From Candidatus Parcubacteria bacterium (GTDB taxonomy: Bacteria; Patescibacteriota; Saccharimonadia; UBA4664; JBIOIQ01): 64,000 nt of DNA. Location: NCBI GenBank assembly GCA_963718875.1, contig OY970378.1, positions 324,396 through 388,395 of the forward strand. The letters run 5' to 3'. Under the pieces are notes generated by a model. That model made no database searches. It had not been told where the DNA came from and saw only the letters and a list, made by a program, of their open reading frames with translations. A program made the position numbers and the translations under genes. Position 1 is the first letter of the stretch, and each line of letters begins with the position of its first letter. Shown piece by piece: positions 21,153 through 53,079 of this stretch.

Positions 21153-21257
21153 CTCTGATAATACTTTCAAAATGCCGTCCTGAAACTTCAATTTATTGAT
21201 TGAAAACTCGGGATGGTACCGGAGACCCTGCGCGTGCACGGTCTCCGGTGGTTGTTG

Positions 21258-21992: not shown

Positions 21993-22143
21993 AAGATGCG
22001 GGAGTAGGAGGGGTTACCTACATAAGTTGGGCTTTCTCGGTTTGTTGCCGGTGCACCACGCCACAGCCGATCCTCCTTTCAAAAGTAGTCGGATGGACGA
22101 AGATAACTAGTATTATATCATACTCTTATAACAATTGCAAAAT

Positions 22144-22162
22144 CTAGAGGTTAAACCTCTGG
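22144..22162. repeat. cassette-boundary palindrome copy 2 (CTAGAGGTTAAACCTCTGG, reverse complement of copy 1)
   Basis: Exact reverse complement of copy 1. Confidence 0.8.
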
Positions 22163-23079: not shown

Positions 23080-23847
23080 ATGTCTATTTCTGTAGACAGC
23101 ACGATTAAAACTAAAACGGCTTTGGTTACGGGTGTATCCCGAGGAATAGGGAAAGCTATTTGCGAACAGTTGAGCGTTGAGGGGTATCGAGTTATTGGTA
23201 CGTACAACCAGGGGCTGGAAGAGTCGCAAACGCTGCAGCGAGAGTTGGGTGAGGTGGAGTTTTTTCAGGTCGATTTTGGCAATCGAGCTGAAACCACCAC
23301 CTTTTTAGAGGTTTTGAAGGGGCGAAAGTTTGAGGCCATTGTTAATAACGCCGGGACTATCGACTTTCAGCAGTTTAGTAAGTATGAAATGAAGGGTTGG
23401 GATAATACACTTGAGGTCAATTTGGGTGTGCCTATGTTGCTGGTGGCGGGCTTGCAGCATAATATTTGTGATGGTGGTTCGGTAGTTAATATTGCCAGCA
23501 CAGATGGATCGATAGGCTCGTTTGCAAGCATTGCTTATTCAGCCAGCAAGTCGGCCTTAATGAATGTCACCAAGAGTCTGGCTAATAATCTGGGCTCTCG
23601 GGGTATACGAGTAAATGCTGTGGCACCTGGGTGGATTAATACCGATATGGATACAGAAGTAGTGGGGGAGTCAGAAAAGCTGACACCGCTCGGAAGAAAT
23701 GGTACACCGGGGGAAGTTGCGGATTTGGTGAGTTTTTTATTGTCGGATAAGGCTGCTTTCATTACTGGAGCTACAGTTGTCATCGATGGCGGATACACCT
23801 GCGTCGATTACGTTATGAAGCTGGAAAACGAGTTGGAACAGGGCTAG
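23080..23847 (+). CDS. SDR-family oxidoreductase (3-oxoacyl-ACP reductase-like)
   Basis: TGVSRGIGKA Rossmann motif, NNAG, and YSASKSA (YxxxK) motif. Stop codon TAG lies inside palindrome copy 3. Confidence 0.75.
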   Translation: MSISVDSTIKTKTALVTGVSRGIGKAICEQLSVEGYRVIGTYNQGLEESQTLQRELGEVEFFQVDFGNRAETTTFLEVLKGRKFEAIVNNAGTIDFQQFSKYEMKGWDNTLEVNLGVPMLLVAGLQHNICDGGSVVNIASTDGSIGSFASIAYSASKSALMNVTKSLANNLGSRGIRVNAVAPGWINTDMDTEVVGESEKLTPLGRNGTPGEVADLVSFLLSDKAAFITGATVVIDGGYTCVDYVMKLENELEQG

Positions 23848-23862
23848 AGGTTAAACCTCTAG
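23844..23862. repeat. cassette-boundary palindrome copy 3 (CTAGAGGTTAAACCTCTAG, perfect)
   Basis: Perfect 19-bp palindrome. Confidence 0.8.
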
Positions 23863-24771: not shown

Positions 24772-24790
24772 CCAGAGGTTTAACCTCTGG
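24772..24790. repeat. cassette-boundary palindrome copy 4 (CCAGAGGTTTAACCTCTGG, perfect)
   Basis: Perfect 19-bp palindrome 24 bp upstream of rnhA. Confidence 0.8.
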
Positions 24791-29971: not shown

Positions 29972-30089
29972 TTGACTAGTTTAAAAAGCATTCGAGCCCG
30001 CGTTAGCGGGCAAGAATGCCTACTAATCACGGGCTCGGCGGAGTGACCTAGTATTTAATGGACTAGGTACGGCTCCTTGCACTGCACGG

Positions 30090-30467
30090 TTACTTCGTTT
30101 CGGTCCAGACGTAGGGACCGAGCTTGGTCCAGCTTGCCACCTTGCGGTCGGTGGCCAGGAGTTCCTTGACCCGCCTGTCGATTTCGAGGCCGCGCTCTGG
30201 CAGATTGGCAGCGCGGTCTGGGTAGTCCATGGCCTCGATGTCGAGCACGACGCCAGCGTTGCTGTGGTTGCCGGGACCGGAGACGTCGAACGGATAGAAC
30301 TCCGTGTCCTCGTCGGGGTCGAGCTGGATGAACGTGCCGGCATCGCCGATGGGGTTGGGAACGAAACAGGAATGCACGGCGGCGACGATCGCGCGGATGC
30401 CAGCCTCGTTGTCCCTCACTGTCTGAACAAGGTCAGGATCGCTTATGTAAGCCTTGATGAGGGGCAT
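30090..30467 (-). CDS. tautomerase-superfamily-like protein (N-terminal Pro1), high-GC xenolog of the adjacent gene
   Basis: Begins MPLIKAYI. About 125 aa. GC about 60% by eye. Confidence 0.35.
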   Translation of the reverse strand: MPLIKAYISDPDLVQTVRDNEAGIRAIVAAVHSCFVPNPIGDAGTFIQLDPDEDTEFYPFDVSGPGNHSNAGVVLDIEAMDYPDRAANLPERGLEIDRRVKELLATDRKVASWTKLGPYVWTETK

Positions 30468-30611
30468 GTGAGCCCTCCTCTGTGTTTGGGGGTGTGCAAG
30501 GGGCGTCTCGGAACTGCCGAGTCAGTCGCTTCTGTCTCCAGATTTGATCACTACATGATATCACAAGTGTCATAAAAAGTCAAACTATATTTTTTGAGTT
30601 TCACCTCAATC

Positions 30612-33048: not shown

Positions 33049-33927
33049 CTATAGGCCGGATTTGATATCTCCAAGCTGCTTTTCGGTAATAATGCGGATT
33101 CGGCGGTCGGTAAGCCGGATGGCAATGGGGGTGCGTCCGGCGACTTTGCCATCAATCATAATGCCTGTGGCGGGTTCGGTGGATATAACCACGCGTTGCC
33201 CGTGCAGGCGGGTAGAGGGAATGTCTTGTGTTGACTTTGCCCCTTTAAGATGTCGCCATAGGTAAGTGGCCATACTGGTGGTGCTGGGTTTCTCGATGGC
33301 ACTAATTTCTAACTCGTTGCTGGCCAGGGGGTTGCTAAATTTTTGGTTTGTTAGGGATAAGCTAAATATGTTGGCGTCAATTTCAAGCTTGTCGTCTATA
33401 GTGAGGTGGCATTGCAAGGTTTGGTAATGTCGAGCGTGCCCAAAGGCCGCTTTAAATTGTCCTAAGCGTTGTTTTATTTTTTGTTCGGGAGCTATGTCAA
33501 CGTTTTTGTCCAAATCGGTCTCAAAGCCAAGGGTAAGCGTGGATAAGAAAAATTTTTGTCCGGCGGCAATCAATCCGTAGCTAGTAATCCGTCTGGCTGC
33601 TAACACGCCGACTGCTTGTTGCCAGCTACTAATACCAAACTGGTTGGCCAGGGCATTGGTGCTACCTATAGGGATAATACCAAGTGCAGCATTACTTCCG
33701 GCCAATCCATTTACAACTTCGTTAACGGTGTTATCGCCACCAATAACAACCACCGTGGTAAAGCCTTTTTCAACGGCCACTTTGGCCATTTTGGTAGCTT
33801 CGCCGGGGCCGGTGGTTTTGGCAAACTCACCGCCAATGCCGACACTGTTTAATTCGGCCCGCAGCTTGTCTTGGATGCCATTGATTGCGCCCCGGTTTGA
33901 TGATGGGTTAATGATGTAGTAATACAT
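33049..33927 (-). CDS. diacylglycerol kinase catalytic-domain family lipid kinase (YegS/DgkB-like)
   Basis: MYYYIINPSS ... VVVIGGDNTVNEVVNGL ... IIPIGSTNALA. Confidence 0.7.
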   Translation of the reverse strand: MYYYIINPSSNRGAINGIQDKLRAELNSVGIGGEFAKTTGPGEATKMAKVAVEKGFTTVVVIGGDNTVNEVVNGLAGSNAALGIIPIGSTNALANQFGISSWQQAVGVLAARRITSYGLIAAGQKFFLSTLTLGFETDLDKNVDIAPEQKIKQRLGQFKAAFGHARHYQTLQCHLTIDDKLEIDANIFSLSLTNQKFSNPLASNELEISAIEKPSTTSMATYLWRHLKGAKSTQDIPSTRLHGQRVVISTEPATGIMIDGKVAGRTPIAIRLTDRRIRIITEKQLGDIKSGL

Positions 33928-33944
33928 ATTTCCTTTTGAATCGT

Positions 33945-34346
33945 TTAAGAGTCCAGGTTCGAGTCGGTATCTGATGGGTGAGGGAGCGGGCTGCGAGCCT
34001 CAGTCATTTTGCTTTCTCCTATAAATACTGCTCCGCTAGAGATTGAGAGGAGACCGGTTGTGATCGTGCCGTGTACTCGTCCGCTCTCGGCTATATTGGT
34101 TTCGCCTTCTGCGGTGACATTGCCAGTGAGCTGGCCGCCAATCCATACGTTAGTGGCCGAGATGTTGGCTTTTACTACGGCGTTAATGCCTAGCGAGACG
34201 TTTCCGCCCGCCTTAATGTCGCCGCTAAAAACCCCGTCAATGATGATGTCGGTTTCACTTACCAAATTGCCCTTGGCCGAAACGCCCGTTCCGATAATAG
34301 TTTCAGAGCTGCCGGTTACACTTAAAGCATCAGATTTTTTGGCCAT
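33945..34346 (-). CDS. bactofilin (polymer-forming cytoskeletal protein)
   Basis: Repetitive beta-helical G/V/S-rich pattern typical of DUF583 bactofilins. Confidence 0.65.
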   Translation of the reverse strand: MAKKSDALSVTGSSETIIGTGVSAKGNLVSETDIIIDGVFSGDIKAGGNVSLGINAVVKANISATNVWIGGQLTGNVTAEGETNIAESGRVHGTITTGLLSISSGAVFIGESKMTEARSPLPHPSDTDSNLDS

Positions 34347-34737
34347 CAGTTGTCTCCTTAAAATTAGGTACTCGTTTCGCTGCTTGGCTAAGGGCTTGTT
34401 TTTCTTCGTTGGAAAGCTGGTATTTACTAGATCCGTAATCTATTGGCTTAACATAGACACGAGTGCCTTCGCGACCGTGGATGCTAGTAAGGACGTATCC
34501 TGAGTCGTGGGCATCCAAGACCGCCAAGGTAAAGCTTTGATCCCCGCCGGTGTCTCCAAAAGGGTTAAACCTCACGACCGAAATTTTTTGCGATGCCAGG
34601 GCGCTTGTAACTGTGAGCTTTTGGTAAGATTGATTTAGTTGATCAAGTTTTTTATCAACTGAGCTTACTTGTTCAGTATAACCAACCAATTGTTGTTCTA
34701 AGTCCCCAGATGCAGTATTGCCAAGTGCGGCAGTCAT
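34330..34737 (-). CDS. hypothetical protein; the frame is open upstream through a TM segment without a canonical start
   Basis: Listed ORF starts at the ATG at 34737. An in-frame upstream run encodes FFLATTAFLTLGLSWCLWKLARINRR with only a CTG after a GGAGG sequence. Confidence 0.35.
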   Translation of the reverse strand: MTAALGNTASGDLEQQLVGYTEQVSSVDKKLDQLNQSYQKLTVTSALASQKISVVRFNPFGDTGGDQSFTLAVLDAHDSGYVLTSIHGREGTRVYVKPIDYGSSKYQLSNEEKQALSQAAKRVPNFKETTDGQKI

Positions 34738-34960
34738 GCGTCGATTGATGCGAGCAAGCTTCCATAGGCACCAAGAAAGACCCAGTGTTAGAAAAGCTGT
34801 TGTAGCTAAAAAAAACGTTTGCAGTGTTCCTCCAAAAAAATCTTATAAATGTAAGTATACAGGACTATTTTTTTAAGTTTTAATCATTACATTCTAAAAA
34901 TCGGCAGTTTGGCGGTATGGATTGGTTATTATATTCAACGAGTGCTACTATGGATGTGTT

Positions 34961-35263
34961 ATGGCAAAGAAGAAAAAATCACACAAGAAACACTATAAGC
35001 AAAACTATTCTAAACCTGCTGTGTCAAAAGTTCTTTCTGAAAATGCTACAGCACGCACGGGTTCTGTTAGTGCTCCCAGTGTGCCCGTAGTTTCGTCTAA
35101 ACCCATAGCTAGTTACCAAGTGGCTAATCTAAACCTTATAAAACAAGATGTGATTAAAGTGGCAATTTTGGCCTCGACATTTGTTGTTCTGCAGCTGCTT
35201 TTGTGGGGATTATTCGAAAATACTTCGATTGGGCCTACTATCTACAATTTTGTAAAAGTTTAA
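34961..35263 (+). CDS. small hypothetical membrane protein (Lys-rich N-terminus, C-terminal TM)
   Basis: MAKKKKSHKK ... VAILASTFVVLQLLLWGLF. Confidence 0.35.
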   Translation: MAKKKKSHKKHYKQNYSKPAVSKVLSENATARTGSVSAPSVPVVSSKPIASYQVANLNLIKQDVIKVAILASTFVVLQLLLWGLFENTSIGPTIYNFVKV

Positions 35264-35266
35264 GCT

Positions 35267-36763
35267 CTATCTGGAACGGTACTGAATAGCTTCGGTTATA
35301 TGTCTTGTCTCAATATTAGGACTGACGTCAAGGTCGGCAATGGTCCGAGCCACTTTTAGTGTGCGCATAAAAGCTCGGGCGGATAAGTTTAGGCTGTTCA
35401 TTGCTTGCTGCAATAGGCTAGAGCTGGCCAAGTCTAGCTTACAAAACTGTTCTATTTGTACGTTTGTCATGGCGGAATTGGTAATCAAGGTGCTATTAAA
35501 CCGCTGGTTTTGTGTTTTACGTGCTCTAGCAACTCTAACAGCGGCTTCCTCACTAGTACCGCTGTGTGATCGTTGCAATAACTTGCTTTGGTCCACCCGT
35601 GCAACTTGCACCGACAGGTCGATCCTATCGAGTAAGGGGCCAGAGATTTTGCGATGATAGTTGGCTACTTGGGCGGGGCTGCAATCGCAGTTTTGGATGG
35701 CGTCGCCAGCATAGCCGCATGGACAAGGGTTTTGGGTGGCGATGAGCAGAAACTTTGATGGAAATGTTACAACACTATTAGCTCTAGCTACGGTTACATA
35801 CCCGTCTTCTAGAGGTTGACGTAATACTTCGAGTACACTTCTGGGAAATTCAGGAAGTTCGTCTAAAAATAAGACTCCATAGTGGCTGAGGCTGATTTCG
35901 CCTGGCTTAGGAAACCGTCCTCCGCCTATCAGTGCAACTGAGCTTGCGGTATGGTGAGGATGACGGAATGGCCGTTGCTGGATAATGCCGCTAAGGGCAT
36001 TACCGGCGAGGCTGTGAAGCTGGGTAATTTCTATGGTTTCGGCCAAAGATGGTGGAGGCATCAAGCCAATTAGAGCCTTAGCAAGCATGGTTTTGCCGGC
36101 GCCCGGTGGACCTGACAGGAGTATATTGTGGCTACCTGCAGCAGCAATTTCCAACGCCCTTTTAGCTTGTTCTTGGCCATATATAGTATTTAAATTTGTT
36201 GTAATATTTACTTTATTGAACTCAAGTCTACTTGATTTGTATGTTGTAATTAACTCTTCACCAATAAGATGACGATAGAGCTCAAATAAGTTTTTAACCG
36301 GGTAGACGTTAATGTTCTGCATAATAGCTGCTTCAGGAGCGTTTTGGGCAGGTATAAATAAATTTTTTATCCCGTGCCTGCTGGCCAGTAGAGCATATGA
36401 CAGAACTCCGGGTATTGGCCTTAAATTTCCGTCTAAGCCGAGTTCTCCGGCAAATATTGCTTGGTCAGGGTTAATTTTAATTTGGCCGCTGGCCTGTAAT
36501 AATGCAACCGCGATCCCAAGATCAAAGGCGCTGCCATCTTTGGGAAGGTCGGCCGGAGCTAGACTTAAAGTGATGCGTCTCGGGGGTAGCTGGAGATTAC
36601 TGTGCTTTATAGCACTGCGTACGCGTTCTTTTGATTCCTCGATGGCTTTGTCGGCTAATCCAACCACAATAAAGGCTGGTAAACCGTTTGATAAGTCGCA
36701 CTCTACGCTTACTATCTGTCCGTCCATTCCAAAATGGGTAGGGGCGAGAACTTTGGCTAGCAT
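35267..36763 (-). CDS. YifB/ComM-family Mg-chelatase-like AAA+ ATPase
   Basis: N-terminal Lon-like domain, Walker A (GPPGAGKT), Walker B (LFLDELPEF) and C-terminal ChlI domain. Confidence 0.8.
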   Translation of the reverse strand: MLAKVLAPTHFGMDGQIVSVECDLSNGLPAFIVVGLADKAIEESKERVRSAIKHSNLQLPPRRITLSLAPADLPKDGSAFDLGIAVALLQASGQIKINPDQAIFAGELGLDGNLRPIPGVLSYALLASRHGIKNLFIPAQNAPEAAIMQNINVYPVKNLFELYRHLIGEELITTYKSSRLEFNKVNITTNLNTIYGQEQAKRALEIAAAGSHNILLSGPPGAGKTMLAKALIGLMPPPSLAETIEITQLHSLAGNALSGIIQQRPFRHPHHTASSVALIGGGRFPKPGEISLSHYGVLFLDELPEFPRSVLEVLRQPLEDGYVTVARANSVVTFPSKFLLIATQNPCPCGYAGDAIQNCDCSPAQVANYHRKISGPLLDRIDLSVQVARVDQSKLLQRSHSGTSEEAAVRVARARKTQNQRFNSTLITNSAMTNVQIEQFCKLDLASSSLLQQAMNSLNLSARAFMRTLKVARTIADLDVSPNIETRHITEAIQYRSR

Positions 36764-36879
36764 TTTATATTCCTTTTCTACACCCTCTAAAGGTATAATA
36801 CCGAACATAAACCGAACTGTCAATACGAAAACTTTTAACCTATAACATTTAATTTTTAACTTTTTCGCCCAAAATTAGC

Positions 36880-36907
36880 AGGTCAAAGGTCAAAGGTCAA
36901 AGGTCAG
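36880..36907. repeat. tandem heptamer AGGTCAA x4 in the divergent promoter region between the YifB-like gene and a TrmB regulator
   Basis: AGGTCAAAGGTCAAAGGTCAAAGGTCAG. Confidence 0.6.
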
Positions 36908-36962
36908 TTAAGTGTTGTTGATGGTTGACATTATTAAACCCAATAGGTATGCTCGAGCAGGT

Positions 36963-37742
36963 ATGAACGAAGATTTACTACGATCAATTGAAGATTTGGG
37001 TTTGAGCCAGAAAGAGGCCAGAGTTTACGTAGCTAATTTAATGCTTGGTCCTGCCACTGTTCAAAAAATTGCCGATCAAGCAGAGATTAAACGTGTAACA
37101 ACCTATGTAATTTTGGAATCCTTGGCTGCGCTCGGCTTAGTGAGCCAAAGCAATCAGGGTAAAAAAACCTATTTTACAGCCGAGGATCCTATAAGTCTGA
37201 GGCGCTTGTTAGATAAAAAAGAGCAGCAAGTTAAAGAACAGAAGCTTGGATTTGAAAATGTTTTACCAGATTTGCGAGATCTTCGTGGTATGCCTGCTGA
37301 TAGCCCCAATGTAAAGTTTTATAATAGTACGGAAGGTATTAATAGCCTGATGAAAGTTTTTTTTGCCTTGCAGGCTGAGGCCGGCAAGAAAATACTATAT
37401 GGCATTAGTAATTTAGACCAAGTAGATGAGTTTTTTCCCGAAATTGAGCGCAATTTATTTAATCCTGAGAGACTAAAAGCGGGGATTAAAAGTCGATTCC
37501 TTTATACTTCGTCTAAAGGACCTGTCTTGCATACCACAGACGCGAAAAGTTTTCGTGAGTCTAGATATATACCCATTGATAAGTATCCTTTGAACGGGGA
37601 TTTTACTATTCTTGGAGATACGATTGTCATGTTATCATTGGTTGGAAAACCCTTGGGCATATCTATCAAAAGCGTAGAAATAGCAATTGGATTGACAGCG
37701 ATATTCAATTTGGCCTGGGATGCTGCTGAAAAATACAATTAG
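36963..37742 (+). CDS. TrmB-family transcriptional regulator
   Basis: LGLSQKEARVYVANLMLGPATVQKIADQAEIKRVTTYVILESLAALGLV. Confidence 0.6.
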   Translation: MNEDLLRSIEDLGLSQKEARVYVANLMLGPATVQKIADQAEIKRVTTYVILESLAALGLVSQSNQGKKTYFTAEDPISLRRLLDKKEQQVKEQKLGFENVLPDLRDLRGMPADSPNVKFYNSTEGINSLMKVFFALQAEAGKKILYGISNLDQVDEFFPEIERNLFNPERLKAGIKSRFLYTSSKGPVLHTTDAKSFRESRYIPIDKYPLNGDFTILGDTIVMLSLVGKPLGISIKSVEIAIGLTAIFNLAWDAAEKYN

Positions 37743-38508
37743 ATTTTAAATTCAGAGACCTACCTACTAAATATTGTACGATTGAGCTTGTGTTTTTTAG
37801 TAGTAATTATTATTGACTCAGTGTTGCTTAAAGTGTAGAATTGACTCTGCTTCGAAGCGCACCGTTACTTGGTCGCAGAGATGCACTCCGGCATGACAAG
37901 TCGTCTTCCGGGGTTACCATAGGCCACTCGTACCTGATAGAAGGAGGGGATGATGGGACGTTGAGCCCAAAGTTCTCATATTCTACTCGCGTACCGGGTT
38001 GCCGCCAGGCAGATCCGAAGGCTATCTCGGCCTGAAGTAAATCCTGAGGGCAACCCTGGGAACTAGATCTGCGATCCTCCTTCCCAGGGGAGGTAGCAGA
38101 ATGGTCATAGGCGCCTGCAGCGCCAACGGCCCCAAAGCGAGGAGATGAACTCCGGCCCACGGTCAACTATCGACCTCGCTGCGGTTTGGAAAGACTGCAA
38201 GGCCGCGCCGCAATGGCAGCCGCTTGCAGCAAAAACGCGGAAAAGACTTTCGCGTTTTTGTCCAGGTGAGAACGTGTTCTCACCAATATTTGCTCGTGAC
38301 GACCTCATCGACAACCCCCCCACGTTACCGATGAACGTCACGAGCAAAATTTCCCCGGTAACGGCAACTTCCTCTCCGCTCACTCTCTTTGTAGTGTCGG
38401 AGCGGAGTCGTTACCGGGGTAGTGTCCCCAATGATCCTGGATTTTTTCAGGGTCTACCATAAGGCCCTTAGTTTTCAAAAGGAACTCGGGGTCTTTTTCT
38501 TAACTTAA

Positions 38509-39447
38509 TTATTTAAAACTTTGACGATACCAGTCAGCTGCTGATTCTGGGAATATTGGGTTTATGATAATGCCAGTACTTAACTCAAATCCGCCGCCAA
38601 TTGTTTGGCGTGGTTCAACTTTTAACACAAAATGATGATCGTAACCAACCAGCGAATCTTGCAGTAAAAAGTTAAAACTAATTTTTGACTCATCTAGAAA
38701 TTGAGTAATTTTTTGCAAAATTACCGCAAATTGATAACGCTCATCTTGTGTAAGTTCTGCAAAAGTTCCGCTGTGTCGTTTTGGGCTAATCCAGGCTTCA
38801 AAAGGGTTTTCGCTGCAGTAGGGTGCATATGCTACAACGTCAGGTTGGTCATATATAATGCGCTCTTTTTGGCCTTGTTCCCAAGCTATAAGATCACAAT
38901 AGGCGCAGGTGCCATATTCTTGGGTGTAGCTATTGAGGGCAGTAGCTTCGTGAGCTAAATGCGGAGGAACGATGGGTAGGGCAAATATTTGCGAGTGGGC
39001 GTGGGCAATAGAGGCGCCAGATTTGGGCCCGTCGTTTTTAAAGACTGTGACATGTCGGATGTCTTTAATTTTTCGTAGGTGGGCTAGACGGTGGGCATAG
39101 GCAGTAAATACTCGTTCAATTTGGGTCAGTGAAAGTTCCGAGAACTCTATATTATGTTCCGGTGTCTCAATCACAACCTCTTGCTTGCCGTAGGCCTTTT
39201 TATTATCAAGGGTAAAAGCTGGATATTTATTGTCGATTACTTTAACAAGCCATTGGCCGCGGGAATTCTTGATTTCATAAATCGATGGGTCATTTTCAAT
39301 TGCTGGGCTGGTAGCCGTTTCGCCAGTATGGGATATATTGCGGCTGATTAACTCATTTGGGCGCATGTTACGTTTTGGAGCTATGACAACGTAGCGATCA
39401 AGAAAATAATGTTTACGCAGCTCAGATTTTGATGATTGATGCTCCAT
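38509..39447 (-). CDS. galT: galactose-1-phosphate uridylyltransferase (HIT family, GalT-type)
   Basis: SIAHAHSQIFALP (HxHxQ) and the Cys/His metal site pattern. Confidence 0.75.
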   Translation of the reverse strand: MEHQSSKSELRKHYFLDRYVVIAPKRNMRPNELISRNISHTGETATSPAIENDPSIYEIKNSRGQWLVKVIDNKYPAFTLDNKKAYGKQEVVIETPEHNIEFSELSLTQIERVFTAYAHRLAHLRKIKDIRHVTVFKNDGPKSGASIAHAHSQIFALPIVPPHLAHEATALNSYTQEYGTCAYCDLIAWEQGQKERIIYDQPDVVAYAPYCSENPFEAWISPKRHSGTFAELTQDERYQFAVILQKITQFLDESKISFNFLLQDSLVGYDHHFVLKVEPRQTIGGGFELSTGIIINPIFPESAADWYRQSFK

Positions 39448-39479
39448 ATTTTAAGCGTAACAATTTTTAGAGGTATCGG

Positions 39480-40742
39480 CTAGCTTTTAGTCTGGACAGG
39501 TTTGTTTAAAAGGTCTTTATATAGGGCTTCAAGTCGCTTAGCCTGGCTGTTTACGGATAATTTGGATGCCCGAGTGCGTGCATCATCGCCCAATCTGTCA
39601 TGTAGGGCTTGATCCTTGAGGATACTTATAAGCTTGTCGGCAAAATCAGCGGCATTATTTTTGGCGTAAAGACCGCTTTTATTGTCAATTACGACTTCTG
39701 TTATGCCATGATCAATCATTACAGTAGGGACTCCGGCAGCCGCAGCCTCATTAACTACCAGCCCTTGGGTGTCGGTTCGCGATGGGAAAGCAAAAACATA
39801 GCTACTTTCGAAAACTGCTCCCAAAACAGTTCTGTCGGTGATAAAACCAGTAAAAATAACTTTATCGGTCAAGCCAAGCGACTTTGCCATAGCTTGTAAC
39901 ACTTTCCTATGAACGTTATCGCCAACAATCACTACGCGACTGTCTGGAACGTGTTTATGTACAATGGCAAAGGCTCGAATTAGTAGCTCCAAGTTTTTTT
40001 CGGCGGCAGGACGGCCAACATTTAAAATAACTTTTTTACCACGCAATGAACTGTATTTGTTGTAAAAAGACTTAATCTCGTCTGAATTCGTTGTGATTTT
40101 ATCAACACCTGTTGGCAAAATAGCTACTGGCTTAATTGTTTTCCAAGATTTTAATTGCTCGGCAACTTTAAAAGATGGGGCTATGACTAGATCACATAGA
40201 TTGTTCATTAGCGGAATCATTTTGGTAACAAGTTTTTGGCTCCAGCGGTCTATACTGATCTCGGGACGCATTAAAGTAATAGAGGTTTTATAAAGGTTTG
40301 GCTTATTTACTAGAAGCGGCAGCATTTGGCTCAGTATTATCGCTCCAGGTAGCGCTTGCGGGTAATGTTTTACATATTCAAATAAATCGGTGTGGTAAGT
40401 AGTCACAAGAGGGATATTGTCTTTAAGCGCAACGGCAATGCCAAAAATTCCCATTTCGCTAGGAGTATGTATATGAACAATATCTAGGCCTAGCCGATGG
40501 GCGCGGCGGTATGCTTGTGGTGTCCAGGGAAACTTGGTCAGATAATCATCAAAGCCAAGTCCCTTGATGGCAGGGAAGCGGATAATATGCGGGTCGGTTT
40601 CTTTGTAGCGAAAGCTTGGTGCGGGAGCAAAAATAAATACCTCGTGTCCAAGGGCCTCGAGTTCTTTACGAAAGTTAACAATTGAATACACTACACCATC
40701 TATTTGGGGGAGGTAGCGTTCACTGAAAAAACCTATTTTCAT
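39480..40742 (-). CDS. glycosyltransferase family 4
   Basis: GT4 pattern (GRPAAEKNLELLIRAF ... FAFPSRTDTQGLVVNEAAAAGVPTV). Confidence 0.75.
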   Translation of the reverse strand: MKIGFFSERYLPQIDGVVYSIVNFRKELEALGHEVFIFAPAPSFRYKETDPHIIRFPAIKGLGFDDYLTKFPWTPQAYRRAHRLGLDIVHIHTPSEMGIFGIAVALKDNIPLVTTYHTDLFEYVKHYPQALPGAIILSQMLPLLVNKPNLYKTSITLMRPEISIDRWSQKLVTKMIPLMNNLCDLVIAPSFKVAEQLKSWKTIKPVAILPTGVDKITTNSDEIKSFYNKYSSLRGKKVILNVGRPAAEKNLELLIRAFAIVHKHVPDSRVVIVGDNVHRKVLQAMAKSLGLTDKVIFTGFITDRTVLGAVFESSYVFAFPSRTDTQGLVVNEAAAAGVPTVMIDHGITEVVIDNKSGLYAKNNAADFADKLISILKDQALHDRLGDDARTRASKLSVNSQAKRLEALYKDLLNKPVQTKS

Positions 40743-41911
40743 TTTGTTGTCCCCTGGACTAACCGCTTATATTGCAGTTCATATTCGTGGAAAGTTACAT
40801 CGGTAGAGTGGTGGTCGCCGATAATTTTTAGGCTGGCTTTGCCAAAATCCTGCTGGCGCTGAGGGTTTTCGAGTATTGCCAAGGTTTTTACGGCTAGTTC
40901 TTGGTAGTCGTCGCGCTTGAACAAATATCCATTAACGCCGTCTTGGCACAGCTCTTTTAGAGCTGCAACGTCAACCGACACAATTGGTAGTCCTGTGGCC
41001 ATTGCTTCAAGTATAACAATGCTTTGGAGCTCGGCCGGAGATGCCATTAAAAACATGCTTGATGCAGTATAAAGTAGGGGCTTATCATCTTCATCTAAAA
41101 ATCCCGTAAAGCTAATATGGCTTTCGACGCCCAAATCACGGGCCTGTTTTTTGCAAGCGTTTAAAGCTACGCCGGCGCCGGCAATTACAAGATGTGTTTT
41201 TTTGTGCTTAAGAATGAGAGGTAAGGCGGAAATTATGAGGTCAATACGCTTTTCGCCGTCTACTCGGCCAAGATAGAGCAATATTGGTCTATCAGTGGGC
41301 AAATTGTATTTCTTGATGAGCGAAGATGCATCAAGGCCTGGGTGAAAAACTGCGGTATCGATACCATTGGTAATGGCTTTGTGGGGTGATTTGAGGCCAC
41401 GGTCAACCAAGAGTTGGACGGCGGTGGGGGTGGGGGAAGTAACAAAATTGCACTTATTATGGAACCACACCAAATAGCGCCAGATTAGAGCATGAAAAAA
41501 TGGCCGGTTTATGAAGTGCATATTTAAAAGAGCGTTTTCTGGCATAAAATGGTTGGTGCCGAGAACCGGAATATGATAGCGTTTAGCCCACATAAGGGCG
41601 GACAATCCCATGAGACCGGCGTTGTGGATGTGGATGACGTTTGGTTTAACTTGCTTTATAACACGGCGGGCTGACCAGAAGGGCCAGTAGCTGACTCGGT
41701 ATTTGGGGTTGTATAGTAGGACCCAAGACTTTTCGCGGTAGATGGTAGTGGGGCCGTCGGGCTGAATATAGGAACTAAAGCCAACTGCGGGAGCCCAGAT
41801 ACTTAAGCTGTGGCCAAGCGCTGAGATGCCATAGGCTAGTCGGCGTTCAAATAACGCTCCACCGTCGAGGCTTGGCCAGTAGCTTTCGGTTGCCAAAAGA
41901 ATCTTCATCTT
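40739..41911 (-). CDS. glycosyltransferase family 4
   Basis: MKILLATESYWPSLDGGA N-terminus and a GT4 C-terminal motif. Overlaps the downstream glycosyltransferase by 4 nt. Confidence 0.7.
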   Translation of the reverse strand, partial: KMKILLATESYWPSLDGGALFERRLAYGISALGHSLSIWAPAVGFSSYIQPDGPTTIYREKSWVLLYNPKYRVSYWPFWSARRVIKQVKPNVIHIHNAGLMGLSALMWAKRYHIPVLGTNHFMPENALLNMHFINRPFFHALIWRYLVWFHNKCNFVTSPTPTAVQLLVDRGLKSPHKAITNGIDTAVFHPGLDASSLIKKYNLPTDRPILLYLGRVDGEKRIDLIISALPLILKHKKTHLVIAGAGVALNACKKQARDLGVESHISFTGFLDEDDKPLLYTASSMFLMASPAELQSIVILEAMATGLPIVSVDVAALKELCQDGVNGYLFKRDDYQELAVKTLAILENPQRQQDFGKASLKIIGDHHSTDVTFHEYELQYKRLVQGTTK

Positions 41912-42011
41912 CATTAGTATAGCAAACTGATTATCCTTAGGGTGTTTTTGAAGTTTGGGTAAAAAAACGGCCCAGCAATGCAAGACCGTTTTTTTTTGTG
42001 CGAACTAGGTT

Positions 42012-42284
42012 CTAGAATGCGCCTGAATCTGATGCAGGGGTAACATTGTCATCGTCATCGTCCCCTTCGCTGTCATCGTCATCGTCATCAGAATCGTTGT
42101 CATCTGCTGCATCAATGTCTTCGAGTTCATCGTCTTCTGGCTCTGCCGTAACGTCATCATCGTTAGCAGGAGGAGTTCCGCCCCCTAATTCCTCACCAAA
42201 GACGTTTTCTGGCCAATCCAAAGGGGTGTTATATGTTTCGTGGTCTTTCATTTGCCAATCTGTTCGGTCACCGTATATATCCAT
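42012..42284 (-). CDS. small highly acidic protein with C-terminal poly-Asp tract
   Basis: GGAGGT Shine-Dalgarno 5 nt before the ATG at 42284. C-terminal DDDDDDSEGDDDDD. Confidence 0.4.
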   Translation of the reverse strand: MDIYGDRTDWQMKDHETYNTPLDWPENVFGEELGGGTPPANDDDVTAEPEDDELEDIDAADDNDSDDDDDDSEGDDDDDNVTPASDSGAF

Positions 42285-42386
42285 CTCGTACCTCCACGTT
42301 TTAGTTATCGTAACGAACTGCACACCCCAATACATTACGTTGTCGATCCTCCAGCCCGCGCTCGTCGTAGGCAATTACTACGACTT

Positions 42387-42430
42387 TTCCGTCAGCTGAC
42401 GGATACGGGCTTCGGCTCTCCTGTACTGCA
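42387..42430 (+). repeat. family D module, full copy
   Basis: TTCCGTCAGCTGACGGATACGGGCTTCGGCTCTCCTGTACTGCA. Confidence 0.6.
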
Positions 42431-42580
42431 TTAAAGTGTGCAGTTCGTTGTAGTTACTATCTTATGTGTGTGTGCGTAGCTTTACTATTGAAAGATTATC
42501 CAAAAATGTGTTCGGTTTTGAGGCGAACAAAGTGCTGTATATGCTGATTACTTTTCTAATCGTTATCTGTATCTGCTATT

Positions 42581-42639
42581 GATAAAAACATTGTTGATGC
42601 CCCGACCAAGCGCAACAAAATGCGCAAGGTCGGGGCATC
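42581..42639 (-). terminator. intrinsic terminator downstream of the Flp pilin gene
   Basis: 12-bp perfect stem GATGCCCCGACC/GGTCGGGGCATC (42596-42607 and 42628-42639) followed on the minus strand by a T-rich tract. Confidence 0.55.
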
Positions 42640-42656
42640 TGGGTGCGGATGCCGTG

Positions 42657-42830
42657 CTACTGAGTGGCTGTAGTCGCGGTGGTGGGTGGGGTGTTGGAGC
42701 TGGTGTCTTCGCCCATGGTGGTCAGGGCCACGATGCAGACCACGGCGATGAGGGCCATGAGTAGGGCGTACTCGATGAGAGCCGAACCCGCCTCGGTTGT
42801 GCTCCTGCGAATTGCTTTCATGTGCTGCAT
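42657..42830 (-). CDS. Flp/Fap-family type IVb pilin (Tad pilus major subunit), high-GC island
   Basis: MKAIRRSTTEAGSALIEYALLMALIAVVCIVAL matches the Flp motif. GGGAGG Shine-Dalgarno. GC about 60% by eye. Confidence 0.6.
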   Translation of the reverse strand: MQHMKAIRRSTTEAGSALIEYALLMALIAVVCIVALTTMGEDTSSNTPPTTATTATQ

Positions 42831-42902
42831 GAAACCTCCCTGTAGTTGGAACATATATGGTAATGGAAACTGATGCTCCTGCTGTCAAACGGGGCAAGGC
42901 CT

Positions 42903-43217
42903 CTAGTGTATGTGTCTTTCGGCCGCCCGTCCGAGCTCGTCACCAACGCGGCCGTCTCGTTCGCCCACAGACTGCGCGAAAGCTTGGCCTCTAACCTTGT
43001 CGAGCTCCCAACCGGCTACAAATACTGCCACCAGAAGTGGCAAAGTCAGAGTCTTGCACACAAGGGTGACCCATCCTGGGAGTTGTTGCTCAAAGCCGTA
43101 CCAGGTCATGGCCACAACAAAAGCCACGGCTGCTAGAGTCAGAAAGCGTGTCCATGCCGCGCCGTTCTTGGCGGGCCGAAGACGACTCAGCTCTGTGAGA
43201 TCTGCAAAATCATCCAT
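42903..43217 (-). CDS. hypothetical membrane protein in the high-GC Flp island (strand call tentative)
   Basis: Two TM helices. Co-oriented with the Flp gene. The overlapping plus-strand ORF 42873-43136 was rejected. Confidence 0.3.
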   Translation of the reverse strand: MDDFADLTELSRLRPAKNGAAWTRFLTLAAVAFVVAMTWYGFEQQLPGWVTLVCKTLTLPLLVAVFVAGWELDKVRGQAFAQSVGERDGRVGDELGRAAERHIH

Positions 43218-43324
43218 TTCCCGCTCCTAGCGTCGACGTTTCTGCCTGCGGATGCAGGTTTAAAATATAATAATATAATTGCTAGCACTTGTAAAATATT
43301 CTTGATTAACTACCCTCAAAAATG

Positions 43325-43330
43325 CTATAA
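43325..43330 (+). promoter_or_regulatory. TATAAT -10 box for ssrA
   Basis: TATAAT lies 12 nt upstream of the tmRNA 5' GGGG. Confidence 0.4.
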
Positions 43331-43342
43331 TTTTGAACACAT

Positions 43343-43721
43343 GGGGCTGATATTAGCTTCGACGTGAGGACATTTACAAACTACTCGGCAGGTCGCAGGC
43401 AGGCGTTACTATCCAAACAATAAACAAATCACAACTTTGTTTCACGGGTGAAGTCGCTCTTTGCAGTTCCTTCATTCGCACCTGCTTTCGCCTAAACACG
43501 AAAGCCATCGTCTCCCTGATGCCCGGTAGGGGACAGACGGTGCCAATTATCGGGACGCTTCCCGCCATTTGCCTCATTGGTGGGACTAAGACTTGAGGTT
43601 GCTGCGTTTGATTATCTTGTCTGTTCTAAGATCAGCGCTTAAGACAATTGAATAGGATAAGCCTGTAGAAGAGTAGTGCGTAACTTCGCGGACCGGGGTG
43701 CAATTCCCCGCAGCTCCACCA
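43343..43721 (+). ncRNA. ssrA: transfer-messenger RNA (tmRNA, SsrA)
   Basis: 5' GGGGCTGATATTAGCTTCGACGTGAGG and 3' GGACCGGGGTGCAATTCCCCGCAGCTCCACCA (T-arm plus acceptor plus CCA). The 5' and 3' ends pair as a tRNA-like domain. I did not resolve the tag reading frame. Confidence 0.8.
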
Positions 43722-43896: not shown

Positions 43897-44152
43897 ATGA
43901 AGCCTTGGTTTGTTTATATCGCAAAAGCGCGAACTGGCAGGTATTACACAGGAATCACGACTGATTCCGACGAAAGAATCAAAAAACACAATGAGGGCAA
44001 AGGGGCTATGTTTGCAATTGAGCAAGGACCCTTCGAGCTAATATTGTTCTGAGCCTTTTGAAGAAAAATCTGAGGCTAGAATCCGCGAAATCCAAATCAA
44101 GGGCTGGAGTAAGATTAAAAAAGAAAAACTGATTAACGGTGAGTGGGAATAA
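43897..44152 (+). pseudogene. GIY-YIG nuclease-superfamily protein (YhbQ/UPF0213-like), disrupted by a single frameshift
   Basis: Frame 1 reads MKPWFVYIAKARTGRYYTGITTDSDERIKKHNEGKGAMFAIEQGPFELILF then stops. The conserved C-terminus SEPFEEKSEARIREIQIKGWSKIKKEKLINGEWE continues in the +1 frame from about 44041. Confidence 0.55.
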
Positions 44153-44181
44153 AGCTTCCTTGTTTTTGATACAATGGCACA

Positions 44182-46370: not shown

Positions 46371-46544
46371 AAAACTACATACATAGCGTATTACTGCGCC
46401 AAGCCTGCGTTCCGCACTCAACGTAGCTTTAACTACGTATTGCTTACGGTACTGGGCTTTCCTCGTACTCCATAGATGTATGTGACTTTTAAGTAGGGTA
46501 GGTGTCGATTCTTTCAGTCCGCATTCGCCTTAGGCATAACTACG

Positions 46545-46600
46545 GCTCTCCGTTAGCTGACGGATACGGGCTTCATTTCTCCTTCTGCTGCACCACAGTA
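46545..46600 (+). repeat. family D module, full copy
   Basis: GCTCTCCGTTAGCTGACGGATACGGGCTTCATTTCTCCTTCTGCTGCA. Confidence 0.6.
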
Positions 46601-47382: not shown

Positions 47383-47835
47383 ATGTATACGGTGAGATTA
47401 GGCAACAAGGTCCGCCGAGGTTTAGTCGCGAGTGCTGTACTGGCTTTCATGCTGATCGCTAGGGCTGCCGAGATGCCCGCCACGGCCTATAACCAGCATC
47501 CCACTGTGTGGGGTCAAACCCGGCTCAGTGAGCCAGATAACGGAAATGTGCTTTTCCGTTATGGCCCGGATGGCACACTGGTGGACGCATACGCAACTAA
47601 CTCAGTGCCTGGGCGGGACTACAATCTTGTAATCGGTAAGGTGTTGGGGATGAATCCTTGCGGAGCAGACACCCATATTGTTAACCCTCGTCCGAACACT
47701 TCCGACAGTACGGGCAAGTTGGGCACGATTACAGGAAATATCCCTTCTACAACTCCTCAAGGCTGGTGGTCTCTATGCTTTGAAGAGGTAGATGGTTCGA
47801 CGACTACGTCCGGGGTGCCCTTTACGGTCATCTAG
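47383..47835 (+). CDS. hypothetical secreted protein (signal peptide), moderately GC-elevated
   Basis: GAGAGGAAG Shine-Dalgarno. N-region RLGNKVRR then a hydrophobic core and ARAAEMPA. Confidence 0.4.
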   Translation: MYTVRLGNKVRRGLVASAVLAFMLIARAAEMPATAYNQHPTVWGQTRLSEPDNGNVLFRYGPDGTLVDAYATNSVPGRDYNLVIGKVLGMNPCGADTHIVNPRPNTSDSTGKLGTITGNIPSTTPQGWWSLCFEEVDGSTTTSGVPFTVI

Positions 47836-50159: not shown

Positions 50160-51509
50160 TTGACATCCTCTGGCAACCCGGAGTACGCTTTTAGTTATAA
50201 GCCGATGGAAAATATAACTACTCGATATTTTGATCCCGAAGAACTGGAGCCGGTTCTTGAATATATCGATAGGATGTGGGCGGTTTTGACCGTATATAAT
50301 CCCAAGGATCGAGGGACTCTAATAGGTCTACCTAAACCTTATATTGTACCTAGTAGTCGTAGCAATGCAGGGTTTAGTTTTAAAGAATCGTATTATTGGG
50401 ATAGTTTTTTCATAGCCCAAGGACTTTTTGGTACCAGGCATAAAAAACTAGCTGGCGATATGCTGGAAAATTTAATTTACCTGCAACGCCGTTTTGGTAT
50501 TATTCCTAACGGTAACCGATTTTATTTTTTGAGCCGATCTCAACCACCTTTCTTGACTACTTACATTTTGCAGGTGTACCACCATTTACGCAAAAGCAAA
50601 AAATGGTTAAGTAGGGCAATGGCGGCTGCGGAGTCGGAGTATTTACAAGTTTGGACAAATAGCGAACATCCCAACAATCGTGTTGTGTTTCAAGGCCTTA
50701 GCCGTAACTATGATATTAATTTAGAATCATCTTTAGCTGAAGCCGAAAGCGGCTGGGATATGACGCCCCGATTTGGTAACCAATGCCTAGATTATTTACC
50801 GGTTGATCTTAATGCGCTGTTATATAAATACGAAAAAGATTTTGAAAATGCAAACCGTATCTTGGAGAGGCAGCAGGACGCTTTAATGTGGGCAAAGCGG
50901 GCCTATCGTCGAAAAGTAACCATGAACAAGTTGATGTGGGATGATAAATCTGGCATGTACTTTGATTACAATTACAAACAAGGCGATAAAAGTTTGGTTT
51001 GGTCGCTTGCAGCTTATTTTCCATTGTGGGCAGGAATGGTTAATGAGGCTCAGGCAAAGATGCTGGTAAAAAACTTAAGTAAGTTTCAGTTTCAAGGAGG
51101 TTTGGCTACTACAACAGCAGATGCAGTGGCAAGTACAAATGAGCGTTCGTTACAGTGGGAATACCCTAATGGATGGGCTCCATTGCAATGGATAGCGGTT
51201 GAGGGGTTGGTAAGGTATGGGTTTAGAGAAGAGGCTGATCTGGTTGTAAGAACTTGGATAAGCGCAAACTTAGCGATGTTTAAAAAACACCAAAGTTTGT
51301 TTGAAAAGTACAATGTGGTGAAGGTAGGGTCGTCGCCTAAGGCAGGTTTGTATCCTGCACAAGAGGGTTTTGGTTGGACAAATTCGTTGTTCTATCGTTT
51401 GAGTAATGATTACTTATTGCCTCAAGAGCTACAGCCAAGCGTTAAGCGTGCCCGTTCTCAGCTGAAATCATATTTAGAACCAGAATGGTCAATTAAAACT
51501 TCTAGCTGA
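50160..51509 (+). CDS. alpha,alpha-trehalase (glycoside hydrolase family 37)
   Basis: GH37 signatures (PGGRF-like RFGIIPNGNRFYFLSRSQPPF and WDMTPRFG ... GWAPLQWIAVEGL). Start may be the ATG at 50205. Confidence 0.75.
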   Translation: MTSSGNPEYAFSYKPMENITTRYFDPEELEPVLEYIDRMWAVLTVYNPKDRGTLIGLPKPYIVPSSRSNAGFSFKESYYWDSFFIAQGLFGTRHKKLAGDMLENLIYLQRRFGIIPNGNRFYFLSRSQPPFLTTYILQVYHHLRKSKKWLSRAMAAAESEYLQVWTNSEHPNNRVVFQGLSRNYDINLESSLAEAESGWDMTPRFGNQCLDYLPVDLNALLYKYEKDFENANRILERQQDALMWAKRAYRRKVTMNKLMWDDKSGMYFDYNYKQGDKSLVWSLAAYFPLWAGMVNEAQAKMLVKNLSKFQFQGGLATTTADAVASTNERSLQWEYPNGWAPLQWIAVEGLVRYGFREEADLVVRTWISANLAMFKKHQSLFEKYNVVKVGSSPKAGLYPAQEGFGWTNSLFYRLSNDYLLPQELQPSVKRARSQLKSYLEPEWSIKTSS

Positions 51510-53079
51510 CCTCAACCACACGATATACTTCTTCTACTGTGGTTAACCCTGCTATGGCTTTGAGCAATCCATCTTGAAGTAGGGTAATCATACCGTCTTT
51601 GGCGGCTTGTTCGGCAATAGCCCGGGTAGTTGAAGCTCCTGTTCCGCTACTAACAATAGCTTCCATAGCGGGTGTCATTTCTAGCATTTCTAGTAGTGAT
51701 ATGCGCCCAAAATATCCATAGTTGTTGCAAGATTCACAACCTTTGCCTCGTGAAAGAGTTATCTTTTCGGTGGGTTGGTAGATAGCGCTTGATACATTTC
51801 GTAGTGCAGCCTTAATTTGATTACTTTGGTTTTGGTCTGGTTCATAGGTTTGGGCGCAGTGTTCACAAACTTTGCGGATTAGCCTTTTGGCTACTATAAG
51901 TCGTAGTGATGATGGTAATAGTGGGTTTTGGCCAATCATATCCATTAAGCGACTGATGGCGGCGGAGGCACTATTGGCATGGAAGGTAGAAAGTACTAAA
52001 TGCCCGGTCAGGGCTGCTTGTAAGGCAGTCTTGGCAGTATCGATGTCGCGAATTTCACCAAGCATGATGACGTTGGGATCCTGTCTTAGAACAGCCCGGA
52101 GCTTTTCGGCAAACAGTTCGTTATCGTCAGCGTTTACGGGTATTTGGCTTGTTCCAGGAAGCTCGTATTCTACTGGGTCTTCTAGAGTAACAGCTTTTAT
52201 TTCGGGAGTGTTTACTTTGTTAATAATTGCGTAAAGCAATGAAGTCTTGCCGGAGTTAGTTGGGCCTACCGTTAAAATCATGCCATGCATATGGGTAATA
52301 ACTTCTTCAAGTTTTTGTTTTTGCGACTCTAACATAGACATACTCGCTAGGCTTAGATATTGGGCGTCGAGGATCAAAAGTCGGGCAATAATTTCTTCAC
52401 CGCGTAGAGTCGGAATACTTTCAAGGCGAACATTAAGAGTAAATTCTTTCCCGGATGAATCAGTCAGGATCTCATCAACACGTCCACCTTGAGGCCGGTC
52501 GCTTCCCCATGTCATATGGCCTTTGGTTTGCAGGCTACTTAATAAAATTTTGTAACTTTCAGGTGGCAACGTCATAACTTGATGCAGCGCACCGTCAATG
52601 CGGAATCGCACTAAGACTTGATCGAGCTTGGGTTCTATGTGGATGTCGGAAGCACGCATGTTATAGCCTTGTTGTGCTAAGAGCCTAAAAATATCGTCGC
52701 CTTTGGCGGTTTTGATTCTAGTAGCAATGTCCTCAAGCGATCCGCTGGAAACTTGACTCATAACGGCAGCATCCAGAACCTTGGCAATTTCATCGAAACT
52801 AGACTGGGTAATAACGTAAAAACGACATTGGTAGTCGGGGAAGCGTTGCTTGATAAATTGTAACCTGCCTAAATCTGTTTTAGATGTGACGCCAAAGTTG
52901 ACTTGGCCGCCAACTTTTCCGAGCGGGACTATTTGATATGTGGCAATGTCGTTTCCGCTCATAAGATTGGAGGCCTGATCGAACCCACTGGCATTGCGCA
53001 GATCAAGATAAACCGACTTATGTTCGGCCGCCCATTGCTTGGCTTTTAGTTCTTCTTGCTCGCGCTCACCATCTTGCAT
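51502..53079 (-). CDS. pilB: type IV pilus assembly / type II secretion ATPase (PilB/GspE family)
   Basis: Walker A GPTNSGKT, Asp and His boxes, tetracysteine motif (CEHC ... CESC) and an N-terminal GSPII_E_N domain. Confidence 0.8.
   Translation of the reverse strand: MQDGEREQEELKAKQWAAEHKSVYLDLRNASGFDQASNLMSGNDIATYQIVPLGKVGGQVNFGVTSKTDLGRLQFIKQRFPDYQCRFYVITQSSFDEIAKVLDAAVMSQVSSGSLEDIATRIKTAKGDDIFRLLAQQGYNMRASDIHIEPKLDQVLVRFRIDGALHQVMTLPPESYKILLSSLQTKGHMTWGSDRPQGGRVDEILTDSSGKEFTLNVRLESIPTLRGEEIIARLLILDAQYLSLASMSMLESQKQKLEEVITHMHGMILTVGPTNSGKTSLLYAIINKVNTPEIKAVTLEDPVEYELPGTSQIPVNADDNELFAEKLRAVLRQDPNVIMLGEIRDIDTAKTALQAALTGHLVLSTFHANSASAAISRLMDMIGQNPLLPSSLRLIVAKRLIRKVCEHCAQTYEPDQNQSNQIKAALRNVSSAIYQPTEKITLSRGKGCESCNNYGYFGRISLLEMLEMTPAMEAIVSSGTGASTTRAIAEQAAKDGMITLLQDGLLKAIAGLTTVEEVYRVVEVS

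Follow-up and report, generated by a model that had tools for sequence, protein, structure and literature searches.

How does a gene that resembles those for the Flp pilins of Tad pili come to lie in a short block of GC-rich DNA next to the tmRNA gene of a saccharimonadial chromosome, and is it of any use there? The question is raised by positions 42596/42598-43258 (minus strand) of a stretch of 64,000 nucleotides (nt) of contig OY970378.1 (assembly GCA_963718875.1, Candidatus Parcubacteria bacterium, Saccharimonadia in GTDB), which is hereafter called the window. Within the block the pilin-like gene, here called flp, follows a second small open reading frame (ORF), orf104, on the same strand. 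The answer we consider probable is that flp is a foreign orphan gene whose function is unproven; in all likelihood it was picked up recently, is a stray and is of doubtful use to the cell.

The flp gene and its predicted product

The flp gene occupies 42657-42830 on the minus strand, its 174 nt specifying 57 amino acids (aa) plus a stop, with no frameshift or internal stop, and translation of this frame gives MQHMKAIRRSTTEAGSALIEYALLMALIAVVCIVALTTMGEDTSSNTPPTTATTATQ. The original prediction had placed a Flp prepilin behind a Shine-Dalgarno sequence here and in both respects it was right, the coordinates being correct, although the peptide that it quoted begins at the second methionine and not at the MQHMK start. 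That second methionine, at 42821, is an alternative start that would give a product of 54 aa. The Shine-Dalgarno sequence GGGAGG is found at 42835-42840 (minus strand), with a spacing of 4 nt to the ATG at 42830 and of 13 nt to the second ATG, and an independent gene call on metagenome (Logan) data likewise begins at 42830.

The leader of the product ends in TTEAG15/SALIEY, which is a G/XXXXEY junction with glutamate at +5, and predicted cleavage between G15 and S16 would leave a mature pilin of 42 aa. The SALIEY motif is followed by a hydrophobic helix of ~21 residues, ALLMALIAVVCIVALTTMG, and the product is thus mostly hydrophobic alpha1-N helix, with a length that falls within the range of ~50-90 aa of short Flp prepilins. 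The tail that comes after the helix, EDTSSNTPPTTATTATQ, is rich in threonine, serine and proline and is atypical; the other two frames past the helix were considered as a source of a frameshifted tail and discarded, neither of them showing a Flp-like tail.

The ORF is taken to encode a Flp-family (type IVb/IVc) prepilin on the strength of four kinds of match, the first being to the Pfam family PF04964, Flp_Fap (E 5.1e-6, 26.6 bits, under the gathering cut-off of 32.2). The second is the motif itself, which is in register with 17 inspected homologs and is common to five relatives from the protein database (P0001-P0005) and eight metagenome loci; a pattern of the motif plus hydrophobic stretch finds flp as its sole match in the six-frame translation of the window, and none over the greater part of a set of unrelated loci totalling 1.44 Mb, from which loci fetched by Flp similarity were excluded. 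Thirdly there are the homologs, the five database relatives being 48-69% identical, with P0004 and P0005 reaching 69% across 56% of the query. In the best relatives the identity is 64-69% in a core of 30-39 aa (...EYxLLxALIAVVCIVALTTMG), the corresponding DNA being 81-87% identical over 53-63 nt. Some of these relatives sit within tad loci, P0004 adjoining RcpC, CpaE, TadA, TadB, TadC and an A24 peptidase in one locus (L001) and standing in tandem with TadE in three others (L002-L004). Finally, the solved Tad pilins 8U2B, 8UCR and 8U1K match the product with E ~1e-3 and their first mature residue is aligned with Ser16, such that the processing motif named in the original prediction is in place against both homologs and structures (8U2B, 8U1K).

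When set beside the Flp/Fap pilins of Tad (type IVc) pili, such as Aggregatibacter Flp1, Caulobacter PilA and the subunits in PDB 8U1K, 8U2B and 8UCR, the flp product shares the hydrophilic leader ending in glycine, the G/XXXXEY junction and the helix of ~21 residues, and its predicted mature length is similar to the 45 aa of the solved subunits. It differs from them in the sub-cut-off Pfam score, the Thr/Ser/Pro-rich tail, the lack of a linked tad locus and a host that belongs to the candidate phyla radiation (CPR). Its nearest sequence relatives are the tad-locus Flp genes of uncultured bacteria (P0001-P0005), which have a guanine plus cytosine (GC) content of 60-68% and lie beside their own machinery, often in tandem with TadE, whereas flp stands alone in a genome of 45% GC. 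An exact look-up of the flp protein in a protein collection did not find it, but the same look-up missed the neighbouring acidic-protein gene, which is known to have been called, and therefore this absence is weak evidence and is not used to describe flp as unannotated.

A small GC-rich block beside ssrA

The block that carries flp is ~661 bp long and lies between the spacer of a native gene for an acidic protein and the promoter region of ssrA. Its composition stands out sharply, as the original prediction of a high-GC block in lower-GC surroundings had it: the GC content of 42598-43258 is 0.58 with a peak of 0.64, against a window mean of 0.455 (standard deviation 0.052), and GC at third codon positions (GC3) is 0.79 in flp compared to 0.35-0.55 in native genes. 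As both GC and GC3 deviate from the native values, and as the loci of Flp homologs all have 60-68% GC, the block is best interpreted from its sequence as horizontally acquired, foreign GC-rich DNA. Searches for a donor among 5.8 billion proteins and in JGI metagenomes, plasmids and phages gave no DNA or protein nearly identical to flp.

The surroundings of the block are in keeping with the assigned lineage. The gene content of the window fits a Saccharimonadia (CPR/TM7) chromosome, the genome being 1.19 Mb, and the best relatives of the neighbouring glycosyltransferase are 54-58% identical and occur in metagenome-assembled genomes of Saccharimonadia/Saccharibacteria. Two of the loci compared (L006 and L007) keep the order tmRNA, acidic protein, glycosyltransferase, and their spacers between tmRNA and acidic protein (~660 nt and ~190 nt) contain neither flp nor orf104. 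Because two syntenic relatives lack the block it is regarded as an insertion. Logan contigs assembled from ERR12037361 cover 33326-42755 and 42728-43718, each of them joining high-GC to native DNA. Breaks in the Logan assembly fall within the best-conserved segment of flp (ALIAVVCIVA, 42728-42755) and at the 3' end of the tmRNA (43718), and it is possible that they come from k-mers shared within the sample, for example with another flp gene or with other strains.

Upstream of flp lies orf104 (42903-43217, minus strand), the small co-oriented membrane protein ORF that had been expected ahead of the pilin, and its 104 aa are predicted to form a membrane protein with a two-helix hairpin. A Shine-Dalgarno sequence, AGGAG, is present at 43224-43228, 6 nt before the ATG. 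The product has two long hydrophobic helices, which a single-sequence AlphaFold2 model places at residues 3-39 and 48-103 (predicted local distance difference test score 77) in a plain helical hairpin. Whether compared with 5.8 billion clustered proteins or, exhaustively with HMMER, with 1.84 billion representative ones, orf104 matches only itself; it belongs to no family in Pfam, NCBIfam or PHROG, has no relatives in viral contigs, and a comparison with the ORFs found upstream of other flp genes was uninformative. The GC of the three codon positions supports the strand of orf104 over the antisense ORF, its GC3 being 0.56. That antisense ORF, at 42910-43230, and an overlapping ORF at 42556-42897 were ruled out by codon-position GC and composition.

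At its other end the block is closed by a GC-rich hairpin (42596-42639, minus strand), which begins 17 nt past the flp stop and with which the islet ends precisely on its 3' side. The hairpin has a perfect stem of 12 bp (42596-42607 with 42628-42639), a 2x2 internal loop and an inner stem of 5 bp, and its energy of -39.6 kcal/mol (z -4.5) was equalled by none of 200 shuffles. The original prediction had called this a strong terminator belonging to the pilin locus, which is borne out as far as the hairpin and its perfect stem go but not in the sense of an adjacent U-tract. A T5 run begins only 8 nt past the stem and a scan for consensus terminators left the site uncalled, so the hairpin does not look like a canonical intrinsic terminator; judged from its fold it is strong and likely a terminator of a non-canonical kind. 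At the opposite edge, in native AT-rich DNA, a sigma-70-like promoter candidate (TTTACA-17-TATTAT, 43267-43295, minus strand) was picked out by its match to the consensus and could drive orf104 and flp, divergently from the candidate promoter of ssrA (TTGATT-18-TGnTATAAT, 43302-43331, plus strand) that a consensus scan gives.

The tmRNA gene itself (ssrA, 43343-43721, plus strand; Rfam RF00023, 105.6 bits, full length) is a native neighbour outside the islet. ARAGORN missed the tmRNA that Rfam finds here. Between the block and the 5' end of the tmRNA there is a gap of 85 nt, which is native and AT-rich and contains the divergent promoter-like sites. Islands that target ssrA insert at its 3' end, and it had been proposed that the tmRNA gene acted as such an integration point in this case, a proposal that fails in several respects. 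The block is on the 5' or promoter side; a search of the window for the 27-nt 3' end of ssrA gives a single site, also with 3 mismatches allowed, so there is no duplicate and no att repeat; and no integrase was found, the block holding only orf104 and flp and the Pfam scans of its neighbours giving no integrase family. What the block has in common with the islands and prophages that target ssrA is that it adjoins the gene, and at 0.66 kb it is also far smaller than they are. Nor does it appear to be an event special to ssrA, because at least five similar islets are scattered through the window.

Further micro-islets in the window

These further micro-islets, of which there are at least five, are sharply bounded and have 56-66% GC in a genome of 45%. 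The composition profile places an SDR/FabG-like islet at ~3736-4613 (edge hairpin 4573-4613), a membrane-protein islet at 19172-19762 (edge hairpin 19172-19212), an islet for a 244-aa protein at 21219-22076 (edge hairpin 21218-21249), an islet for a 125-aa protein at 29988-30541 (edge hairpin ~29988-30019) and a gene-free islet at 37853-38458, with a weaker candidate at 47401-47700. Most hold one gene each, with GC3 of 0.67-0.80, and the values for four of the cargo genes, flp included, lie within 0.78-0.80. The islet genes end in a GC-rich hairpin that forms the edge of the islet, and in at least two cases a T-run of native DNA comes immediately after the hairpin. A Logan contig crosses the left junction of the SDR islet.

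Three of the six islets, with the flp block counted among them, end less than 150 nt from an RNA gene (4613/4752, 21090/21219 and 43258/43343, the genes being tRNA-Val, tRNA-Pro and ssrA), on either side of it. By a rough estimate this closeness exceeds chance. It may be a matter of permissive spacers and not of integration at specific sites, since the ends of the tRNA and tmRNA genes were not found in duplicate. Neither of two known kinds of mobile carrier fits. Terminal inverted repeats of a carrier like a miniature inverted-repeat transposable element were suggested by a 19-nt palindrome, CYAGAGGTTWAACCTCTRG, that flanks the 21-kb islet, yet the same palindrome is also found at 23844 and 24772, away from any islet, and is thus a native motif; the flanks of the flp block have no comparable repeats, only an exact match of 9 nt that is at chance level. 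Integron cassettes were rejected since the islets are scattered and not arrayed, there is no integrase, and the sequence adjacent to the hairpins does not fit GTTRRRY.

Islands acquired by horizontal gene transfer (HGT) are common in Patescibacteria (PMC12455944). The islets of the window resemble the islands and single-gene transfers described there in being DNA of deviant composition in a reduced CPR genome, for which uptake by competence is plausible. They differ in that they are only 0.55-0.9 kb long, hold 1-2 genes, end in hairpins and occur several times in 64 kb, and pilin cargo is not reported for the Patescibacteria islands in the part of that source that was read.

Where such DNA might come from is suggested by two of the cargo genes. 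The hosts of Saccharibacteria are Actinobacteria, and the gene of the SDR islet (~3.7-4.6 kb) gives its best score with an actinobacterial FabG1 model and its top plasmid hits, at ~50% identity, in Streptomyces and Microbacterium, a likeness that on sequence grounds fits those hosts. The 244-aa protein of the third islet (p244; 21258-21992, minus strand) complicates this picture. It has just six relatives in 5.8 billion proteins, with 38-49% identity, and those examined, which include L094 6001-6648 and L096 6001-6708, lie on contigs of 52-57% GC that by their gene content can be taken as CPR-like. The relative in L096 is itself a sharp GC outlier (gene GC 0.68, GC3 0.89). It may therefore be that the donors form an unsampled pool or one within the group itself, and this family hints at a pool of high-GC genes that moves among such genomes.

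Two of the islets show peculiarities of their own. In the membrane-protein islet an ORF of 215 aa (19234-19881, minus strand) has its first ~40 codons in low-GC native DNA and the remainder in the islet; this ORF is chimeric in composition and either has an internal true start or is a fusion. The gene-free stretch at 37840-38470, which has 56-58% GC and lies between a gene for a TrmB-like regulator and a GalT-like gene, folds far better than its shuffles do (-281 kcal/mol and z -11 on the plus strand, z -5.9 on the minus strand). Rfam gives nothing for it even at E<=1 and the comparison loci contain nothing similar; the stretch is a candidate for either a large structured RNA or a foreign non-coding islet.

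The native DNA of the window also contains repeated palindromes. The four sites of CYAGAGGTTWAACCTCTRG (21134-21152, 22144-22162, 23844-23862 and 24772-24790, where 0.03 would be expected) cluster near the genes for a TrmB-like regulator and an SDR protein, two of them being those that flank the 21-kb islet, and they are probably a family of operators or terminators and not transposon ends. A second palindrome, CCGTCAGCTGACGG, has six sites with at most one mismatch (4985, 10837, 15086, 20985, 42389 and 46550) where 0.07 would be expected, all of them seemingly at or between gene ends and two just upstream of tRNA genes. Three of its copies share a structured element of ~100 nt that is 78-80% identical (15033-15130, 42334-42431 and 46503-46583), one extended copy lying 200 nt away from the flp hairpin in native spacer DNA, within a leader whose folding has z -5.5. 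On the far side of ssrA, 175 nt downstream, a gene for a GIY-YIG nuclease (43897-44160, plus strand) is split by a frameshift, and its repaired product of 85 aa covers the full Pfam GIY-YIG profile (E 2e-15).

Possible function of flp and its meaning

Whether flp can be of use depends on the machinery around it. Pfam scans of the ~55 ORFs of the window gave no member of the T2SSF, A24, RcpC, CpaE or TadE families, so the absence of tad secretion and prepilin peptidase genes, which the original prediction had noted, is confirmed and flp is an orphan within the 64 kb. An ATPase gene 9 kb away (51502-53079), which had been proposed as a helper, does encode a T2SSE protein of the PilB type, the sole T2SSE ATPase of the window, and stands alone between trehalase and subtilase genes. 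Its product scores 342-360 bits with PilB/GspE models against 33 bits with the TadA-family model, and for this reason it is not regarded as a Tad motor, so that the class of the ATPase stands whilst its assignment to flp does not. Other Saccharibacteria are also known to have pilB copies that stand alone (bioRxiv 10.1101/2023.03.20.533568). No Flp-like ORF is present in seven loci labelled as Saccharibacteria, and a search of the literature found neither a report of a Flp gene in Saccharibacteria nor any account of a Tad system in TM7x, a cultivated Saccharibacterium that has type IVa-like systems with PilD and in which no Tad system was identified (PMC11623550).

The sequence of events that would explain the locus begins with the insertion of a foreign GC-rich segment of ~661 bp into the spacer between the ssrA promoter and the native acidic-protein gene, the segment bringing two small co-oriented genes, orf104 and then flp with its own hairpin. 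This insertion would be one case of small, high-GC pieces of gene plus hairpin landing in permissive spacers. Saccharibacteria are naturally competent (PMC10633639), and the route is plausibly DNA uptake by a naturally competent episymbiont. Transcription would start from the promoter-like site at 43295-43267, divergently from ssrA, and stop at the hairpin, with translation from both Shine-Dalgarno sites. The prepilin, if it is made, would enter the membrane by means of its class III signal peptide. Cleavage after Gly15 could then come from an A24 prepilin peptidase whose gene lies elsewhere, PilD being characteristic of Saccharibacteria together with type IVa-like pili. Without cognate TadA, TadB and TadC the 42-aa product would be a roleless passenger, or could at best serve as a membrane peptide or accessory subunit, perhaps contributing in a small way to the type IV filaments of the cell.

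A number of points weigh against this account. With regard to origin, no close donor of flp was found, the best match being confined to the 64-69% identity of the short core, and the two relatives on which synteny rests are themselves distant, at 54-58% aa identity. The neighbouring orf104 is without any homolog and has a GC3 (0.56) below that of flp, so it may be no real gene or the block may be a composite, and the promoter proposed for the two genes is a consensus match of a kind whose site count is not above the expectation from shuffles. With regard to identity, the Flp_Fap score is under the curated cut-off, the NCBIfam models have zero matches to the product, and its tail does not have the amphipathic hydrophobic pattern that is present in 17/17 inspected homologs, an oddity of sequence that could reflect decay. 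With regard to function, the orphan status of flp covers the 64-kb window and it is possible that a tad locus exists elsewhere in the 1.19-Mb genome. In Pseudomonas aeruginosa Flp reportedly needs its own peptidase, FppA, and not PilD, which if right weakens the idea that a resident PilD cleaves the flp product.

The possibility of a tad locus elsewhere leads to the first of the alternatives, that flp is a functional satellite pilin, either served by a distant Tad machine or accepted by the type IVa-like machinery and PilD, and used for example in attachment to the host. The intact ORF, the strong Shine-Dalgarno sequence, the complete processing motif with Glu at +5 and the tidy transcription unit between a promoter-like site and a hairpin are what such a gene would be expected to have, and the lone PilB-type ATPase is only 9 kb away. 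Glu at +5 is, to our knowledge, common to all type IV pilins. It is also in favour of a working pilin that Saccharibacteria need type IV pili for binding to their hosts and have several copies of pilB (PMC11623550; bioRxiv 10.1101/2023.03.20.533568). Against this, there is no Tad component in the window and the nearby ATPase is not of the TadA type, no Tad system was identified in TM7x, the seven Saccharibacteria-labelled loci have no Flp-like ORF, the C-terminal tail is atypical, and there is no second copy or conserved ortholog that would indicate selection. A functional satellite pilin is therefore considered unlikely.

A more ambitious version of the same idea takes all the islets together, as a cassette-like pool of mobile genes that DNA uptake brought in from high-GC hosts or an unsampled donor, with the flp cassette supplying a minimal pilin that is processed by the cell's own PilD and type IV machinery and displayed for host contact. 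It draws upon the density of at least five units in 64 kb, the GC3 near 0.8, the closeness of three of the six to a tRNA or tmRNA gene and the occurrence of p244 as a GC outlier in at least one other genome of medium GC, and we hold it to be quite a long shot.

It is more doubtful still that flp is not a functional pilin gene at all but a decaying remnant, or codes for a small hydrophobic peptide (toxin-like, for example) that resembles Flp by its helix only. The Pfam score under the cut-off, the low-complexity atypical tail, the ORFan neighbour and the lack of machinery nearby would all suit such a peptide. However, the similarity to Flp pilins spans the junction of leader and G/XXXXEY and so goes beyond the hydrophobic stretch, the pattern of motif plus helix occurs nowhere else in the six frames of the window and is missing from most of the 1.44 Mb of other loci, and the ORF has neither a frameshift nor an internal stop, with the other frames offering no better Flp tail.

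Least credible of all is an assembly chimera or contamination, in which a high-GC fragment was misjoined into a Saccharimonadia contig, since in spite of the sharp GC boundaries, the failure of the (weak) look-up of the exact protein and the Logan break within the flp core at 42728-42755, two ERR12037361 contigs cross the junctions of the block, as one does for the SDR islet, the islet is just 661 bp with its genes fitting between native promoters and spacers, and at least two other islets have a hairpin that runs into a T-run of native DNA.

A foreign orphan gene is thus the reading with which we continue, and much of what surrounds it is already familiar, Flp pilins, HGT islets in Patescibacteria (PMC12455944) and competence in Saccharibacteria (PMC10633639) all being known. 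The more unusual aspect is the set of tidy micro-islets of gene plus hairpin. As its function is unproven, flp as it stands is a well-documented curiosity of HGT and not a new system. For contact with the Actinobacteria to which they are attached, Saccharibacteria depend on type IV pili, and if flp did come from a high-GC donor it would be a concrete candidate for surface equipment that derives from the host or mimics it. The use of a Flp pilin by a type IVa peptidase or machine would also become directly testable, and together the micro-islets illustrate how a reduced, naturally competent CPR genome may take up single foreign genes.

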